From Chloroflexota bacterium (GTDB lineage: Bacteria; Chloroflexota; UBA11872), in NCBI GenBank assembly GCA_965198185.1, contig CBDAOU010000001.1, forward strand, positions 636,310 to 700,309: 64,000 nucleotides of DNA, written 5' to 3'. Every line of letters begins with the position of its first letter. Position 1 is the first letter of the stretch. The notes under the pieces were generated by a model that ran no database searches, had not been told where the DNA came from, and saw nothing but the letters and a program-made list of their open reading frames with translations. The translations under genes were made by a program, and so were the position numbers. Positions 32,280 to 44,615 of the stretch are shown here, piece by piece.

Positions 32280-33083
32280 ATGTCTGACCGGCGCTACACG
32301 ATGGCTAAGCCGTACTGGCGCCAGCTGCTGGACTCGGCGCGTGTCGTGCGAGGTGTCTTGGGGGCGGCGCTCGCCCTGTGGGTCATTCTGCGCATGTTGG
32401 GGATTCTCGACGCTTGGGACCTGCTGACACTCACTTTGGTCATCGCCGGTCTCGCCTGGCTGATTGACCTCGGCCCGCGCAACCCGTCCGGGTGGCTTGT
32501 GGTCGGCGCCGGCATCCTGGTGCAGGTGAGCCATCGCGGCGCGTTCAGCGGCGGCGTGCAGCTGGGCATTTGGCTGGCCTTCGCGATCGTTGCCTTGGGC
32601 GCCCTGTGGCAAAACGGGACCATCCGCACGCGTCGCACGGTGCGCTTGCGAGGGTGGAAAGACAGCCACGTGGATCTCAATTACACCGGGGGCACGCTGC
32701 GCGCCAGGGGCGACGTCCGGCGGGGCGAGATTACCTGTCGGCTGTGCGACGTCGTTGTCGATCTGCGGTACGCCGACATCACCCGTCCGCCGGCGATCCT
32801 CGATGTGACGTGCGTCGTGGGCCGGCTGGATTTGGTGGTACCGATCTGGTGGCGTGTCGGCCAAAACGTCAACACCACGCTCTCGCGCCTGGTGCTCGAG
32901 GCGCGCCTTGCCGGGGAACACGGCAGTCCCAGGTCCGGCTCGTGGATTGGGCGCATGCGGCCGGTCGGAAGCCGTAGGCGCGGCGTCCGCGAGGGCGGAG
33001 ACCCGGAGCCGGACGCGGGCTTCGTGAACCTGCTGGTGCAAGGGTCGTCGCACCTGGGCCGCATCCGGATTCGCCACACCTGA
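32280..33083 (+). CDS. membrane protein with a LiaF-like/DUF2154 beta-rich C-terminal domain, copy 1
   Basis: N-terminal TM helices, then repeated beta-strand segments 'NYTGGTLRARGDVRRGEITCRLCDVVVDLRYADI...DVTCVVGRLDLVVP'. Start at the Met at 32280 or 32301. Confidence 0.55.
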   Translation: MSDRRYTMAKPYWRQLLDSARVVRGVLGAALALWVILRMLGILDAWDLLTLTLVIAGLAWLIDLGPRNPSGWLVVGAGILVQVSHRGAFSGGVQLGIWLAFAIVALGALWQNGTIRTRRTVRLRGWKDSHVDLNYTGGTLRARGDVRRGEITCRLCDVVVDLRYADITRPPAILDVTCVVGRLDLVVPIWWRVGQNVNTTLSRLVLEARLAGEHGSPRSGSWIGRMRPVGSRRRGVREGGDPEPDAGFVNLLVQGSSHLGRIRIRHT

Positions 33084-33711: not shown

Positions 33712-34515
33712 ATGCCTGACCGGCGCTACACGATGGCTAAGCCGTTCTGGCGCCAGCTGCTGGACTCGCCACGTTTCATGCGAGCGGCCTTTGGCATGTC
33801 CGTGTTCTTTTGGATCATCCTGCGCATCACCGGGGTCCTCGATATCTGGGACCTGCTGACGATGATGCTGGTGCTCTTTGGTCTCACCTGGATGAATGAC
33901 CTCGGTCTACTCAATCCGGTCGGATGGCTTGCGGTTGGCGCCGGAATCCTGGTGCAGGTGAGCCATCTTGGCGAGTTCAGCGGCAGCGTGCAGCTGGGCA
34001 TTTGGCTGGCCTTCGCGATTGTTGCCTTGGGCGCCCTGTGGCAAAACGGGACCATCCGCACGCGTCGGACGGTGCGCTTGCGGGGGTGGAAAGACAGCCA
34101 CGTGGATCTCACCTACACCGGGGGCACGCTGCGCGCCAAGGGCGACGTCCGGCGGGGCGAGATCACCTGCCGGCTGTGCGACGTCGTTGTCGATCTGCGC
34201 TACGTCGACATCACGCGTCCGCCGGCAATCCTCGACGTGACGTGCGTCGCGGGTCGGCTGGATTTGGTCGTCCCGATATGGTGGCGCGTCGGCCAAAACG
34301 TGAACACCACGCTCTCGCGCTTGGTGCTCGAGGCGCGCCTCGCCGGGGAACACGGCAGCCCCAGCCCGCGCACGTGGTTTGCGCCGATTCGGCCGGGCGG
34401 CAGCGGTAGACCCGGCGTCAGTCAAGGCGGCGATCCGGAGCCGGACGCGGGCTTTGTGAACCTCTTGGTGCAGGGGTCGTCACACCTGGGCAGGGTGCGG
34501 ATTCGCCACGCCTGA
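33712..34515 (+). CDS. membrane protein with a LiaF-like/DUF2154 C-terminal domain, copy 2 (tandem paralog)
   Basis: ~85% identical to copy 1. C-terminal halves are near-identical at the nucleotide level. Confidence 0.55.
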   Translation: MPDRRYTMAKPFWRQLLDSPRFMRAAFGMSVFFWIILRITGVLDIWDLLTMMLVLFGLTWMNDLGLLNPVGWLAVGAGILVQVSHLGEFSGSVQLGIWLAFAIVALGALWQNGTIRTRRTVRLRGWKDSHVDLTYTGGTLRAKGDVRRGEITCRLCDVVVDLRYVDITRPPAILDVTCVAGRLDLVVPIWWRVGQNVNTTLSRLVLEARLAGEHGSPSPRTWFAPIRPGGSGRPGVSQGGDPEPDAGFVNLLVQGSSHLGRVRIRHA

Positions 34516-34787: not shown

Positions 34788-35639
34788 TTAGCCTTCGGGC
34801 GCGATGAGGATCTCGTTGCGGGCGCGGAGGGCCAGCGTCTCGTTGTAGAGCGTGGGCGGTCGGCGTGGCAACGGCGGCGCGGTGGGCGTTTTGGATGGAT
34901 CGCGGAGCGCCCGGCGGTCCCGCCCCCGCACTTCCCACCACCAGTGCTCAGTTGCCAGCGGCTCGACCTCCCGGCGGAGAATGAACTCCGCGCGGTCCCA
35001 GGCGCTGAAGGCCGCGTGGGCCAGAAAGACCCGCGACACCATGGCGCCGTCCCACTCTTCGAGATCGGGCAGCGCCAGCGGCCCCGTGTCGACTTGAAAC
35101 TGGCCCTTCGTCCGCTCGATGTTGATCGTGCGAATCGGGTATTCCAGCGTGACGGTCAGCCCCCGCGCGCCGTCGTGGTAGGTCGTGCGGGCGTTCAAGC
35201 GTTGCCCAGCCCGCACCGCGCGCATCACCTCGCGGGTGTCGCGTGTCGGCTTCGAGCCTGAAACCACGTGGGTCGTGAAATGCGTGCCGGCGAAGCGGCC
35301 GGCGTGAGGCGTGGGGGCGGTCGGCTCGCGCTCCGCAGACGGGCGCGTGGCGATGGGGATGCCGTGCGTGCGGCTGAGCACCACCCGGAACTCCTGGCTG
35401 GGGACCTGGAACAGGTTGCGGTCGGCGATGGTGTACTCGGCAAGACAGGGTTGCAGCAGGAAGATTTCAAGCGGCGGCGCGTCATCCTCGCCGCGGATCG
35501 TGCACACGGCGTCGTAGCCGATGCGCACGTGATAAGCGTCGCCCGGCTGGCCCACGAAGCCGCCGGGGTACTTGTAGACCGGGTCCGGCCGGTGGGGCAG
35601 GTGGTCCCAGGTGAAATGCGAGCGCGCGAAGTCGATCAT
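34788..35639 (-). CDS. hypothetical protein, 283 aa, unknown family (paralog A)
   Basis: No motif I recognise. Shares 'MIDFxRSxxTW...PDPVYxYPGGFVGxPG...NLFQVP...RLNARxTY...FLAHAAF...EFILRR' with the upstream gene. Confidence 0.55.
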   Translation of the reverse strand: MIDFARSHFTWDHLPHRPDPVYKYPGGFVGQPGDAYHVRIGYDAVCTIRGEDDAPPLEIFLLQPCLAEYTIADRNLFQVPSQEFRVVLSRTHGIPIATRPSAEREPTAPTPHAGRFAGTHFTTHVVSGSKPTRDTREVMRAVRAGQRLNARTTYHDGARGLTVTLEYPIRTINIERTKGQFQVDTGPLALPDLEEWDGAMVSRVFLAHAAFSAWDRAEFILRREVEPLATEHWWWEVRGRDRRALRDPSKTPTAPPLPRRPPTLYNETLALRARNEILIAPEG

Positions 35640-36487
35640 TGGCGCACCGATTCAGAGGCCCGCAGGATGGTGTTGACCGCCGCCAATTCCCAGGTTTCGT
35701 AGTAGCCGGACGCGCGCGGGCGGGGCCGTTCGGGTTCGACTCCCGGCACGTGCCGCTCGTACCGATCACGCCCGCGCACGGCGGCCGCCCAGGCCAGGTC
35801 GTGCTCGGCCACCTCGATGCTCCGCCGCAGGATGAACTCCACGTGATCGTCGGCGGCGAAGGCCGCGTGGGCCAGGAAGACCCGATCGACTCCAGCGCCA
35901 TCCCAAGTGGTCAGGTCTGGGAGCGCCACCGCGCCGGTGCACACCTGATAGCGGCCGCCGCCGGCGTGCAGGTTGATGAGCTTTATCGGGTATTCGACGG
36001 TCACCGCGAGGCCCTGCACGTTATCTCGGTAGGTGGATCGGGCGTTGAGGCGGTCGCCCGCCAGGGAGGACGCGACGATCGCGTCGTCGGTCACGAGCGC
36101 CGCGGCATCGAGCGTGCGCACGTCGATGGCGACTCCGCGAACCGCGCCGCCGATGGGCTGCCGCCGCGTGCCCTCGTCATGCCAGCTGGGCTCGGCGGCG
36201 ATGGGGACCGTGAACGCGTCGCTGACGGCGGCGCGGAACTCGCCGTTGGGCACCTGAAACAGGTTGTCGTCGGCGATGATGAACTCGGAGCGGCAGGGCG
36301 CGGTGAGATAGATCGTGCACGCGGTACCCCGCGCCTCATCGACGATCTCGCAGCCGGCGTCGATCTGGAGTCGGCTGGTGGTGGCCTCGCCCGGCTCGCC
36401 GACAAAACCGCCCGGATAGGCATAGACCGGGTCGGGCTCGGCCCACTCGATCGTCCAGGTGATGAAGGATCGGTTGAAGTCGATCAT
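35636..36487 (-). CDS. hypothetical protein, 283 aa, unknown family (paralog B)
   Basis: ~45% identical to paralog A with the same length. Stop/start ATGA overlap at 35636-35639. Confidence 0.55.
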   Translation of the reverse strand: MIDFNRSFITWTIEWAEPDPVYAYPGGFVGEPGEATTSRLQIDAGCEIVDEARGTACTIYLTAPCRSEFIIADDNLFQVPNGEFRAAVSDAFTVPIAAEPSWHDEGTRRQPIGGAVRGVAIDVRTLDAAALVTDDAIVASSLAGDRLNARSTYRDNVQGLAVTVEYPIKLINLHAGGGRYQVCTGAVALPDLTTWDGAGVDRVFLAHAAFAADDHVEFILRRSIEVAEHDLAWAAAVRGRDRYERHVPGVEPERPRPRASGYYETWELAAVNTILRASESVRQ

Positions 36488-37103
36488 GGATCAGCCGGCG
36501 GAGCCTGGCGCATCCCCCACGGTGGACCTCTCCCTGCCACGGCGCCCGGGCTGGTGAGGATAGCCCGGCGGCGGCGGGATCGACTATCCATCGGCGCACG
36601 CCGTAGCTGTCCGGTCCCGGATCGCGCCACGAGCGGGATGTCCGCGAACGTATCGATCTCGAAGCTCCTCCGGTGCCTTATTGCTTGACGAACGCGGCGG
36701 GGAGTCCACCACCCGAGGTTCCCTTCGTAGGGATGCGCTGCCAAGCAGCAGCGCGTGAGTGGGGTGGAATCCGCTGCGAACTGGAAGCCCGAGATCGTGT
36801 TTGACAAGTTACCGCTCGAACATTCGCAGGCCATAATAGACACCAAGAACTCAAGTGTTCATAGGCGGTGGACTTGAAGCTGGTTCGAAGTGGAGTGTGA
36901 TCTTTCTCGCATGTGGTATCGCGACCTACGTCCACGGTTCAAGCCACGTTTTCGGTCGGCCTATATGCCCCCGTGTGCGGTCCTTCTTCGTTGTCTCGCA
37001 CTCCCGCAAAGTGGTAGCATGGTAGATATCGGGGAGTGCCGTGAGAGGGGGGCGTATGCGTGACGCGGAGACCACGGTGCCTATCCAAAGAAGGAGGACC
37101 GCC

Positions 37104-37373
37104 ATGCCCCCACGGCGCCCACGTGAAGAGGCGGTCCGCCTCGGCAAGGAGAAATACCACCGGGACATCCTGCCTCAGGTCGAGGCTGACCACTTTGGAG
37201 AGTACGTCGCCATCGACATTGAGACCGGGGACTGGGCCGTTGCCGACACGACCCGCGTTGCGGTGGAGCGGCTGCGAGCGCGGCGGCCCGATGCTGTCGA
37301 TGTCTTGTGTGAGCGCGTCGGATACCGGGCGTTGCGCAGCTTCGGGGCCGGGTCCCTGCGGAAGACCGGGTGA
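37104..37373 (+). CDS. small hypothetical protein (89 aa) co-transcribed with a retropepsin-like protease
   Basis: AAGGAGG Shine-Dalgarno 7 nt upstream of the ATG at 37104. 'EADHFGEYVAIDIETGDWAVADTT'. Stop overlaps the protease GTG (GTGA). Confidence 0.6.
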   Translation: MPPRRPREEAVRLGKEKYHRDILPQVEADHFGEYVAIDIETGDWAVADTTRVAVERLRARRPDAVDVLCERVGYRALRSFGAGSLRKTG

Positions 37374-37741
37374 TCGAGGGGGTTGTGAATGCCGCCCGTG
37401 AAGCAGTGGTTCCCCTACACCTACAGGGGCCAGAGGGGCGGACCCGGGAGATCGAGGCCGTGGTCGACACCGGCTACAGCGGTTTCTTGACGCTGCCAAC
37501 TGCGTTGGTGGACGAGATAGGGTTGCCGTTCGCTTACATTGGCCAGGCGCTTCTGGCCAACGACGCTGCGGTCGATTTCGACGTTCACTACGTCACCGTG
37601 CTCTGGGACGGCCAACCGAGAGACATCGAGGCCGACGCGACGGGCAGCACCCCTCTCGTGGGCATGCTGCTCCTAGACAGGCATGACCTGAGCATCCAGG
37701 TTCGGGACGGCGGGCGAGTCCTCATTCAGGCTACGGCATAG
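37370..37741 (+). CDS. retropepsin-like (clan AA) aspartic protease
   Basis: 123 aa with 'VVDTGYSGFLTLP' (DTG motif). Second copy of this family in the window. Confidence 0.7.
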   Translation: MIEGVVNAAREAVVPLHLQGPEGRTREIEAVVDTGYSGFLTLPTALVDEIGLPFAYIGQALLANDAAVDFDVHYVTVLWDGQPRDIEADATGSTPLVGMLLLDRHDLSIQVRDGGRVLIQATA

Positions 37742-37755
37742 ATAATGAATATCGC

Positions 37756-38793
37756 ATGGCTGATGGGATGAGCGAACGGCTGGACATTGCCTACTACTAT
37801 CCCGCGCCCTTTTGGGGCATGGGCGAAGGCAGCTGGATAGAGTCGCTGCTCCTGTTCTTCGATAAGGTCTCCATCCTGCTGCCGGGCTATATATACGGGC
37901 GACATCATTCCGCCGACCCCGTGTTGGCCGAGCCGCTGGAAGACTAAGGTTTGCTGGAGGTGCTCGAACCCAACAAGTGGATAGACCAGGACATGACGAA
38001 GAAGCTGGTAGAGACTGTCAGCGACCTGCTTGCTAACGGTGTGTTCGACAACCTTCCCGGAGAAGTCTATTTCCACGAATTGTCTCAGTCCCGCATGGGC
38101 TACGGGGCCGATGTTGATCTGGCTGAGTCGCTGATATCGAGACTTCGGGCGAAGGGGCTTGCGAAACCGAGCGAGGATGGCGTCTCGATACCCCTCCACC
38201 CGACCGTACGCACGACCATCCTCGTCATCCTCGCCCAACTTGCGCGCTCGGCAGGCAACAAACATAACCTGTCCGTCCACCCTGCTACCCAAGACGGACG
38301 CGCCCTCAAAGACCTCATTGATACCTTATCGAACGAGCGGATGCCTTCCCGCGGCAATGTAGTTGCCCTTGACCTCGAACCCGTCAGCTTCAACCTGGAC
38401 CCAGTGCCTCTTGACGAACTCCTACAATTCCGAGCCGAGCACCATGAGGCGCACCGGGTTTATATGCGTAACCTGCGAGGGTTCATGATGGAGCTTTCCG
38501 ACATCGATAGCCTGGAGGATAGAGCGGCCCTTCTCCTACAGCGACGCCAGGAAATCTCCGACGCTGCTCACGAACTCCAACGCTCTACTCGAATAGCACT
38601 GGGAGTAAACCTTGCCTCATGGTCCCTGGGAATCGCTGGCAGCGCATGGTCGGCTACGACTGGCGACCCGCTCGGAGCCGTGCTTGCGACGTTGGGGCTA
38701 GGCTCAAGCATCGTCGGCTTGGTGGCCACGTCCTCGAACAAGGTCACCGCTTACTCCTATCTGTTTCACGTGCAACGCACCTTTGCGGGGTAA
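37756..38793 (+). pseudogene. 345-aa unknown-function ORF interrupted by a single in-frame TAA (37945-37947)
   Basis: ORFs 37756..37947 and 37951..38793 are in the same frame: '...AEPLED*GLLEVLEPNKW...'. N-terminal 'YYYPAPFWGMGEGSW', C-terminal Gly/Ala/Ser-rich hydrophobic segment. Low GC (~50%). Confidence 0.45.
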
Positions 38794-38889
38794 CCACACG
38801 CAGTTCCGTCCTGCCGACGATCCAATGAAACGGTCCCACGGCGGTTCCGGGAGTACCCTAGGCCCCATGCCGCACTTCCAAAACCCGGC

Positions 38890-44372: not shown

Positions 44373-44615
44373 GTGCGGGTCAAGATCACGTCCAAGCGCC
44401 AGGTCACCTTTCCCGCACATGTGCTGGATGCCCTGGGTCTGCAGCCGGGCGACCGGCTCGACCTTGAGGAAGGGCCGGACGGCTTCTTGCTGCGCCCCGT
44501 GCGAGTCGATTCGACCCGCCTCGCACCGCTGCGCGACAAGCTCCAACGCGGGATTGGCGCCTTCGATCTTGAGAAGTTCCGGGAGCAACGCCATGACCCA
44601 GCGCTTCGGGATTGA
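44373..44615 (+). CDS. vapB: AbrB/MazE/SpoVT-family antitoxin (VapB-like)
   Basis: 'VKITSKRQVTFPAHVLDALGLQPGDRLDLEE' is a swapped-hairpin AbrB-fold signature. GTG start. Confidence 0.7.
   Translation: MRVKITSKRQVTFPAHVLDALGLQPGDRLDLEEGPDGFLLRPVRVDSTRLAPLRDKLQRGIGAFDLEKFREQRHDPALRD

Follow-up and report, generated by a model that had tools for sequence, protein, structure and literature searches.

A horizontally acquired islet beside recJ of a Chloroflexota genome holds a retropepsin-like protease gene pair and a DUF6236-related pseudogene

The DNA under study, called the window in the following, is a stretch of 64,000 nucleotides (nt) from a Chloroflexota bacterium. Beside its recJ gene lies a short islet of lower guanine-plus-cytosine (GC) content. 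Behind a non-coding stretch of ~600 bp the islet carries three genes in a row: a gene for a small protein of 89 amino acids (aa), a gene for a retropepsin-like aspartic protease, and a long open reading frame (ORF) with a premature stop codon. The positions are compiled in Table 1. A first-pass annotation of the window had loosely likened the protease and its long neighbor to protease-activated effector loci of the gasdermin or CHAT type. Our analysis points to two modules which are independently mobile elsewhere, i.e., the pair of small gene and protease gene (module 1) and the long gene (module 2).

Table 1. Coordinates of the islet and its parts in the window.
Feature	Position	Strand	Remarks
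Inserted islet, 2.26 kb	36589-38847	.	Variable hotspot between tandem 283-aa genes and recJ
Non-coding spacer inside the islet, ~365 bp	36589-36953	.	No ORF; similar DNA in L001 and L004 only
5' control region of the pair cassette	36954-37103	+	75% identity with the equivalent stretch ahead of the L085/L086 small gene
Degenerate hairpin	36967-83	+	Perfect, then T-rich sequence, in L008, L014 and L052
-35-like TTGTCT	36991-96	+	From alignment with homologous cassettes; 18 nt from the -10-like hexamer
-10-like TAGCAT	37015-20	+	Inside the GGTAGcatGGTAG box 37013-37025; -10 columns invariant in the cassette alignment
Alternative in-frame ATG of the small gene	37056	+	
Shine-Dalgarno sequence AAGGAGG	37091-97	+	6 nt before ATG 37104
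Small protein, 89 aa (105 aa from ATG 37056)	37104-37373	+	Distantly DUF5678-like
Retropepsin-like aspartic protease, 123 aa	37370-37741	+	GTG start overlaps the TGA of the small gene (37370-73)
Pseudogene of a 341-aa DUF6236-related protein	37768-38793	+	98% identical to intact P0001 of syntenic L001
Nonsense TAA, codon 60 of the 341-aa frame	37945-37947	+	CAA (Gln) in L001 and L004
3' tail of the islet, behind the long ORF	38794-38847	.	~30 nt common to long-gene loci L002, L012 and L056

The islet and its genes

Close RecJ homologues were looked up and led to three informative relatives. In L155 (RecJ 88% identical) the site is empty: the alignment to the window runs until 36588 and resumes at 38848 with 18 nt between, and both 283-aa paralogues stand directly before recJ. 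In L153 and L154 (RecJ 92%) the exact islet site is taken by other cargo, a gene for a sodium:solute symporter (SSF) and a methyltransferase gene. Because of the empty site and the different cargo the segment 36589-38847 has to be regarded as inserted DNA in a variable site. The same islet is present in two syntenic Chloroflexota assemblies, L001 (~95% identical overall) and L004 (~89%). Compared with L001 the islet is 96.4-100% identical and the flanking genes 89-95%; compared with L004 the islet genes reach 96-98% and the flanks 83-88%. Divergence of the islet between strains is 4-10 times below that of the flanks. Therefore, the islet is either younger than the divergence of the strains or was exchanged among them. 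The GC content is 0.58-0.66 over about 36.6-38.8 kb versus 0.68-0.71 in the flanks; the dip reported by the first-pass annotation is real, yet does not reach down to the ~50% given there. Presence or absence between conserved flanks, deviant GC and a divergence out of step with the flanks, i.e., the marks of a horizontal islet, are all seen. Thus, the islet is a horizontally acquired insertion in a variable hotspot beside recJ of a Chloroflexota genome, and its earlier description as an islet was correct.

The locus contains no integrase and no transposase. A search for a target-site duplication or end repeats at the islet ends returned only short GC-rich chance matches and no inverted repeat. 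An integron gene cassette was considered and rejected because the junction between protease and long gene measures just 26 nt and no attC-like repeats were seen (a dedicated attC model was not applied). In the 3' tail of the islet no terminator was called by scan. The alternative inserts span L153:3167-5516 and L154:1988-4337; that of L153 encloses a 74-nt duplicate of the 5' end of the 283-aa gene (L153:4673-4746).

The small gene and the protease gene overlap as previously described and make up one operon. The protease matches the NCBIfam model TIGR03698 (clan_AA_DTGF) with 63.3 bits at a cut-off of 57.35 (E 2.2e-17, profile positions 2-105 of 107), which confirms the assignment made from its DTG motif. 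This motif is encoded at 37466-74 and lies within VVDTGYSG (residues 31-38). D33 and T34 are invariant in the homologue alignment, and DTG (rarely DSG) is retained in nearly all relatives. A single D-T-G in about 120 residues implies that the active enzyme is a homodimer, as predicted for this architecture. At the place of the retroviral G-R-D/N-type motif the protease has TPLVGMLLL. Compared with L001 the small gene shows no change and the protease gene one synonymous change.

The closest homologues of the small protein are called at 105 aa. Searches with the small protein in Pfam, NCBIfam and PADLOC yielded no family, and its profile found no solved relative in the PDB. DUF5678 does not match the window protein; a weak match is seen in 2 of 20 relatives (best E 0.0065). 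In the small proteins a near-invariant Gly, mostly as Gly-Gly, precedes a variable C-terminal tail by 6-10 residues (window residues 79-89), an arrangement which, judged by the residues, is reminiscent of ubiquitin-like precursors.

The first-pass annotation had treated the ~600 bp ahead of the small gene as one element without a credible ORF. The ORF listing bears out the latter: between the start of a 283-aa gene (36487, minus strand) and the small gene no credible ORF exists. As to the former, the stretch splits into three parts of different origin. Its first ~100 bp (36488-36588) are ordinary host intergenic DNA, the second part is a spacer, and the third is the 5' region of the cassette. 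Might the stretch itself be functional, encoding a small RNA or a decayed partner gene of the system? It belongs to the transferred block and is conserved like coding DNA among the window, L001 and L004; other loci with all three genes also have ~300-600 bp without genes upstream of the pair. On the other hand, the host intergenic part is present at the empty L155 site as well, and comparison of the stretch by tblastx and blastn with all fetched loci showed that only the last ~100 bp are shared, i.e., with L085/L086, with no convincing tblastx match. Rfam gave nothing at E<=1 over 35.5-39.5 kb, a tRNA scan of the stretch found none, and its RNA folding is unremarkable (z ~-0.8 on both strands). 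We consider a function of the stretch itself very improbable.

The duplicated box GGTAGcatGGTAG and the AAGGAGG sequence, both pointed out earlier, are present. The box comprises the -10 region and a second copy of GTAG. The hexamers of the window agree with the consensus in 8 of 12 positions, and the promoter scan did not call them; hence, the cassette promoter is proposed by homology. Clearer promoters exist at the equivalent place in many loci of the pair, e.g., TAGAAT and TTGGCA...TATATAT. In many cassette loci a direct repeat GTAGAA-N8-9-GTAGAA spans the -10 box (e.g., L008:4290-4330, L052, L015, L086); the lineage of the window has it in the compressed form GGTAGcatGGTAG. GTAGAA occurs twice, 8-9 nt apart, in many homologous loci; hence, the duplication as such is conserved and possibly serves as an operator in autoregulation. 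By its sequence module 1 (36954-37741) is a self-contained, translationally coupled two-gene cassette with its own putative sigma70-type promoter.

The long ORF had been described as 345 aa long and starting twelve nt after the protease. The first ATG (37756) is located 14 nt and a second one (37768) 26 nt behind the protease gene. Because the homologues start at the position of ATG 37768, the gene consists of 341 codons and the gap is 26 nt. Masking of the stop codon allowed 732 homologues to be found; of the best 120, almost all are 335-348 aa long and uninterrupted. The in-frame TAA was correctly noticed, as was that the ORF is an interrupted member of an uncharacterized family. Homologues other than L001 and L004 have Q, R or L at codon 60.

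Is the TAA real? Only one base, a C-to-T change, separates it from the CAA of L001 and L004, and the assembly of the window is probably metagenomic, so a sequencing or assembly error in an intact and functional 341-aa gene has to be considered. Yet the same copy carries K25E and M42I at positions which are invariant among 18 homologues, and the comparison with the long gene of L001 shows seven non-synonymous and one synonymous changes, whereas the adjacent pair has 0:1 and recJ 14 non-synonymous and 61 synonymous changes. This ratio next to a clean pair and the pattern of recJ speak for truly relaxed selection and against a lone sequencing error. Further, other assemblies often contain truncated copies of the family: of 72 genome loci at least 13 are degraded, and several truncated members fall within one 90% cluster. 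An error is therefore hardly to be expected. With a nonsense codon and substitutions at invariant residues module 2 of the window is, as judged from these codons, a genuine pseudogene.

A full HMMER search assigned the relatives of the long protein to 916 clusters at 50% identity. Pfam DUF6236 (PF19749) matches 22 of 62 diverse relatives at E<=0.01 (best E 3.8e-10), and the DUF6236 relatives are of similar length. In contrast, the subfamily of the window itself stays below the gathering threshold: P0094 scores 24.3 versus the required 26.2, and P0001 and the stop-repaired window protein are not hit. The profile matches thus indicate a relationship to DUF6236 at the superfamily level. An earlier AlphaFold run with 18 close homologues was poor, with a predicted local distance difference test score (pLDDT) of 59; with 62 diverse sequences the overall pLDDT was 79.5 and >90 for residues 1-190. 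The model comprises an α/β Rossmann-like N-domain, a long helical hairpin (215-278), a Gly/Ala/Ser-rich segment of low confidence (281-323) and a short C-terminal helix. Foldseek searches against the PDB (E<=0.001) and BFVD and a profile search of the PDB gave nothing significant.

The C-terminal region has a conserved pattern, LGxAGxxW...GDPxG...AYSYLF. The Gly-zipper-like hydrophobic character ascribed to it in the first pass is weak: the best 19-residue Kyte-Doolittle mean is 1.62 with a family median of 1.4, and 8 of 62 members reach 1.6. With such marginal hydrophobicity the attribute membrane-active stays a guess.

The two modules in other genomes

The pair is widespread. The small protein has 638 detectable homologues, many of them 85-97% identical and closer to the window protein than the copies in other three-gene loci. 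A scan of JGI metagenomes with the protease profile returned 61 loci with 33-66% identity. A homologue of the small protein is encoded immediately upstream of the protease in all 53 loci which provide room for it; the other 8 are cut by contig ends. The genes downstream of the pair are mutually unrelated. With the small-protein homologue P0211 (L076-L083) an HNH endonuclease gene follows the pair; with P0128 (L084) no same-strand gene follows and phage-type genes (RusA, AHJR, HTH_17) adjoin. DNA homology of the window with L084 and L076 is confined to the pair, 37099-37741. Altogether, the overlapping or close layout recurs in more than 60 loci, and in more than 50 loci the pair is complete without the long gene.

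Culturable cyanobacteria possess the pair as well. On plasmid pCC7120alpha of Nostoc PCC 7120 a 90-aa 'hypothetical protein' overlaps a 'clan AA aspartic protease' by 4 nt, the latter being the RefSeq name of the cyanobacterial protease homologues. The accessions of this plasmid-borne pair are WP_044523651.1 and WP_010999818.1. The upstream Nostoc protein is homologous to the small protein of the window (hhalign probability 99.6%, E 1.4e-24). Plasmid pNSMS101 of Nostoc sp. MS1 has the pair as an insert (L148:2205-2842) that separates the BREX-1 genes pglZ and pglX.

The two genes of the pair decay unequally. In nine loci an intact small gene accompanies a protease gene with a truncation, frameshift or stop codon; the reverse is found in one locus, and both genes are hit in one. 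Allowing for gene length the 9:1 asymmetry has a binomial p of ~0.04; retrieval of loci by protease peptide patterns biases against it. Individual cases are L012:4332-4975, with in-frame stops in both cassette genes, and L017:4601-4972, with a frameshifted protease gene between intact small and long genes. In a metagenome locus a 1039-aa ORF follows the pair (L087:1070-4189); its start, …VVLVLGAGAS…, may be a SIR2-type NAD-binding motif like that of large defence proteins.

The long gene was surveyed at 72 loci from GTDB species genomes (43-94% identity). It is present in at least eight phyla (Chloroflexota, Acidobacteriota, Latescibacterota, Gemmatimonadota, Rhodothermales, Alpha- and Gammaproteobacteria, Actinomycetota, Binatia) and keeps 55-80% identity across phyla. 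A 45% identical homologue is encoded on a plasmid of Rhodococcus koreensis. In 62 of the 72 loci the long gene is without the protease. Neither the long gene nor the protease has relatives in IMG/VR or among GenBank phages; a phage origin was rejected on these grounds.

In L041 (4340-6370), L042 (3930-6360) and L072 a HigB-like gene and a helix-turn-helix (HTH) antitoxin gene precede the long gene. This block is 94-98% identical at the DNA level over 1.7-2.0 kb, while the metagenome-assembled genomes (MAGs) are assigned to Longimicrobiales, Pseudomonadales and Paracoccaceae, respectively. It represents either a very recent cross-phylum transfer or an artefact of binning or assembly. The MAGs may stem from sponge symbionts, as the isolate-name series IRC3, RHO3, COS2, SB06xx and Plut would suggest.

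Other neighbors of the long gene point to defence. It stands beside HsdM and a DEAD/ResIII helicase in L149, beside an MmeI-like enzyme, a ThsB-TIR protein and a helicase/MZB pair in L150, and beside an AAA_15 ATPase and DUF4276 in L151. We scanned the 122 nearest ORFs of 41 long-gene loci, a set for which no background control was available. Strong PADLOC matches were DISARM DrmMI/DrmD/DrmA, type IIG restriction-modification, QatC, BrxH, ThsB and DpdE/F; Pfam matches were six DEAD/ResIII helicases, McrBC, DpnII-type nucleases and several DDE transposases. These contexts are suggestive of a residence of the long gene in defence islands. ThsB-TIR as a fixed partner was rejected because it is positioned upstream in L150 and downstream in L031.

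A motif of ~45 nt (…tagattgagacctcccaccggaaagttcgcaatacggta…) forms a direct repeat flanking the long gene in some Dehalococcoidia (L009, L013). In L007, L010 and L018 it is located downstream of the long gene, at about +45 to +100, and in L010 the 3' end of a tRNA lies just upstream. Possible explanations of the motif are a repeat element and a site of recombination.

Adjacency of the two modules is seen in 10 of the 72 long-gene loci (9 genomes) and in few loci of the pair. The first-pass annotation had made its grouping of the three genes depend on whether homologues co-occur elsewhere. They do: in these 10 loci the pair is positioned directly upstream in the same order and with the 26-nt junction, down to a protease identity of 51%, and neither a promoter nor a terminator was found between protease and long gene. 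All ten belong to one Chloroflexota subclade of the long-gene tree. In L002/L005 and in L006 a relic of the protease 3' end (60 nt in L002/L005) precedes an intact long gene; other members of this subclade have lost the pair altogether. One clear recombinant between the modules exists (L014). As far as trees and junctions tell, the association arose once and is physically tight, fairly stable and dispensable.

Some neighboring genes deserve mention. The tandem paralogous 283-aa genes at 34788-35639 and 35636-36487 (minus strand) overlap by 4 nt and are 48% identical; no match was found in Pfam, NCBIfam, PADLOC or PHROGs. They are kept beside recJ in L001, L153 and L155. Two further tandem paralogous genes (32280-33083 and 33739-34515, plus strand) are 78% identical, and their products are hydrophobic in the N-terminal half. 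A family scan, which covered the second copy (33739-34512), returned no match. Just upstream of the gene at 32280 the GC content dips to ~0.60 (31.8-32.4 kb), presumably the first islet of the first-pass annotation. About 5.6 kb downstream of the recJ-associated islet, positions 44373-44612 (plus strand) encode a 92.5% identical homologue of a MazE-type antitoxin which in L001 precedes a PIN-domain gene, i.e., a second module of the toxin-antitoxin (TA) type.

Two modules or one system

Rather than a demonstrated killer system activated by a protease, the islet is an accessory mosaic. We favor the view that it combines a TA-like protease cassette with a decaying cargo gene of defence islands, two modules which move independently elsewhere, and assign to this view a probability of roughly 0.55. 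That the pair itself behaves as a TA- or addiction-type cassette, in which the small protein restrains a costly protease, is proposed more tentatively, at somewhat less than even odds, on account of how the genes are arranged, their mobility, their occurrence in defence islands and a BREX locus, and the asymmetry of decay. The small protein would be co-translated in a fixed ratio with the protease and would restrain the dimeric enzyme as an inhibitor or decoy substrate; unrestrained, the protease would be costly to the cell. The long protein would be a separate cargo of the conflict or defence type, with a cytoplasmic Rossmann-like N-domain, a helical hairpin and a Gly/Ala/Ser-rich C-terminal segment which perhaps associates with the membrane. 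Where all three genes are joined, the long gene could ride on the cassette promoter without a need for the protease.

Several points weigh against this view. The proteins of the pair fall outside the known families of toxins and antitoxins, and the small protein has no recognizable DNA-binding domain. The asymmetry of decay is modest, and some protease lesions may be assembly errors or come from related contigs. The fold of the long protein has no significant match among solved structures, and its association with defence islands is anecdotal, as strong matches among 122 ORFs are to be read without a background control. In the three-gene loci the distances of the pair and of the long gene correlate (Mantel r 0.69, p 0.0006), i.e., the modules are largely co-inherited. 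Because of this co-inheritance and the conserved 26-nt junction a functional link is possible within this clade.

Such a link is taken furthest by the assumption of a single three-gene system of this Chloroflexota clade, in which the protease, checked by the small protein, processes or activates the 341-aa protein for an action on the membrane. The constant order and junction in 10 genome loci with protease identities down to 51%, the co-inheritance, the uninterrupted transition from protease to long gene, the conserved Gly-rich C-terminal segment and the defence-type contexts of both modules would all fit. Yet the long gene is intact without a protease in most lineages, including L002/L005 with their 60-nt relic, the pair is complete without the long gene in its 50 and more other loci, and L014 has recombined between the modules. 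Nor did the long protein display a gasdermin or CHAT relationship in PADLOC and Pfam (E<=1) or in Foldseek against the PDB (E<=0.001), and its hydrophobicity is marginal. With the modules mostly apart and such a C-terminus, the protease-activated effector of the first-pass annotation was not upheld, and we regard the three-gene system as unlikely. We are equally reserved about a bolder proposition, namely that the pair represents a new TA or abortive-infection class with a dimeric aspartic protease as effector and that one Chloroflexota lineage recruited the DUF6236-related protein as a third, co-transcribed effector, resulting in a three-gene defence operon whose copy in the window is decaying.

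A different role of the pair could be proteolytic processing. The small protein would then be the substrate, trimmed after the conserved [F/L/I]-G-G, with a regulatory or tagging product. The analogy is Ddi1, which combines a ubiquitin-like domain with a retropepsin domain. The strict pairing and coupled translation, the near-invariant Gly or Gly-Gly 6-10 residues before the C-terminus, and a residue pattern which suggests a β-β-α-β core (read from the alignment by eye) would be compatible with it, whereas ubiquitin-like or E1/E2-type genes were not seen near the pair and the more frequent loss of the protease would rather be expected of a costly effector. Processing thus appears improbable to us, and the restrained protease next to a separate cargo gene remains the preferred explanation.

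The literature search found no relevant study on DUF6236, DUF5678, TIGR03698 or a retropepsin combined with an antitoxin; a retropepsin-domain protein reported near archaeal type III CRISPR loci is of tangential interest only (PMC3973734). While the islet of the window is an ordinary accessory mosaic with a dying gene, the pair and the DUF6236-related gene are two widespread and seemingly uncharacterized gene sets. Metagenomes from soil, the sea and symbionts contain the pair, and so does culturable Nostoc, there even inside a BREX locus. If the pair is a TA or defence module, aspartic proteases would join the repertoire of bacterial conflict effectors. The long gene, for its part, may constitute a single-gene defence or conflict factor and can serve to mark recent transfers between phyla.

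Comparison with known systems

Like the cargo of defence islands and other hotspots, the islet is a defined insertion or deletion with an empty site, alternative cargo in relatives, a lower GC content and a lower divergence than its flanks. At its locus no integrase, transposase, attC-like site or target-site duplication was found.

Similar to gasdermin and CHAT operons, a protease gene is positioned in an accessory islet directly upstream of a gene for a protein with a Gly-rich, weakly hydrophobic C-terminus. Here the resemblance ends. The protease of the window is of another class, a bare domain of 123 aa without sensor or repeat domains, and its association with the long gene is facultative and restricted to one lineage.

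With TIGR03698 (the AF_0612 family) and the retropepsins, such as HIV protease and the RVP domain of Ddi1, the protease shares a score above the family cut-off, the single D-T-G and a size of ~120 residues. In contrast to retropepsins it is free-standing, neither part of a polyprotein nor fused to ubiquitin-like (UBL) or ubiquitin-associated (UBA) domains, and proteases of this type are always preceded by a DUF5678-like gene.

From type II TA systems such as HigBA and MazEF the pair differs in that its members belong to none of the recognized families and show no recognizable DNA-binding domain, and in that the putative effector is an aspartic protease; aspartic proteases are not known among the established TA toxins. 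The likeness lies in the organization. Two small genes overlap, the smaller one comes first, and they have their own promoter, as predicted by homology. They are scattered over unrelated contexts, plasmids and defence islands, and decay is frequent, with the putative effector being lost first. Finally, in other phyla it is a HigBA-like pair which holds the very same place before the long gene.

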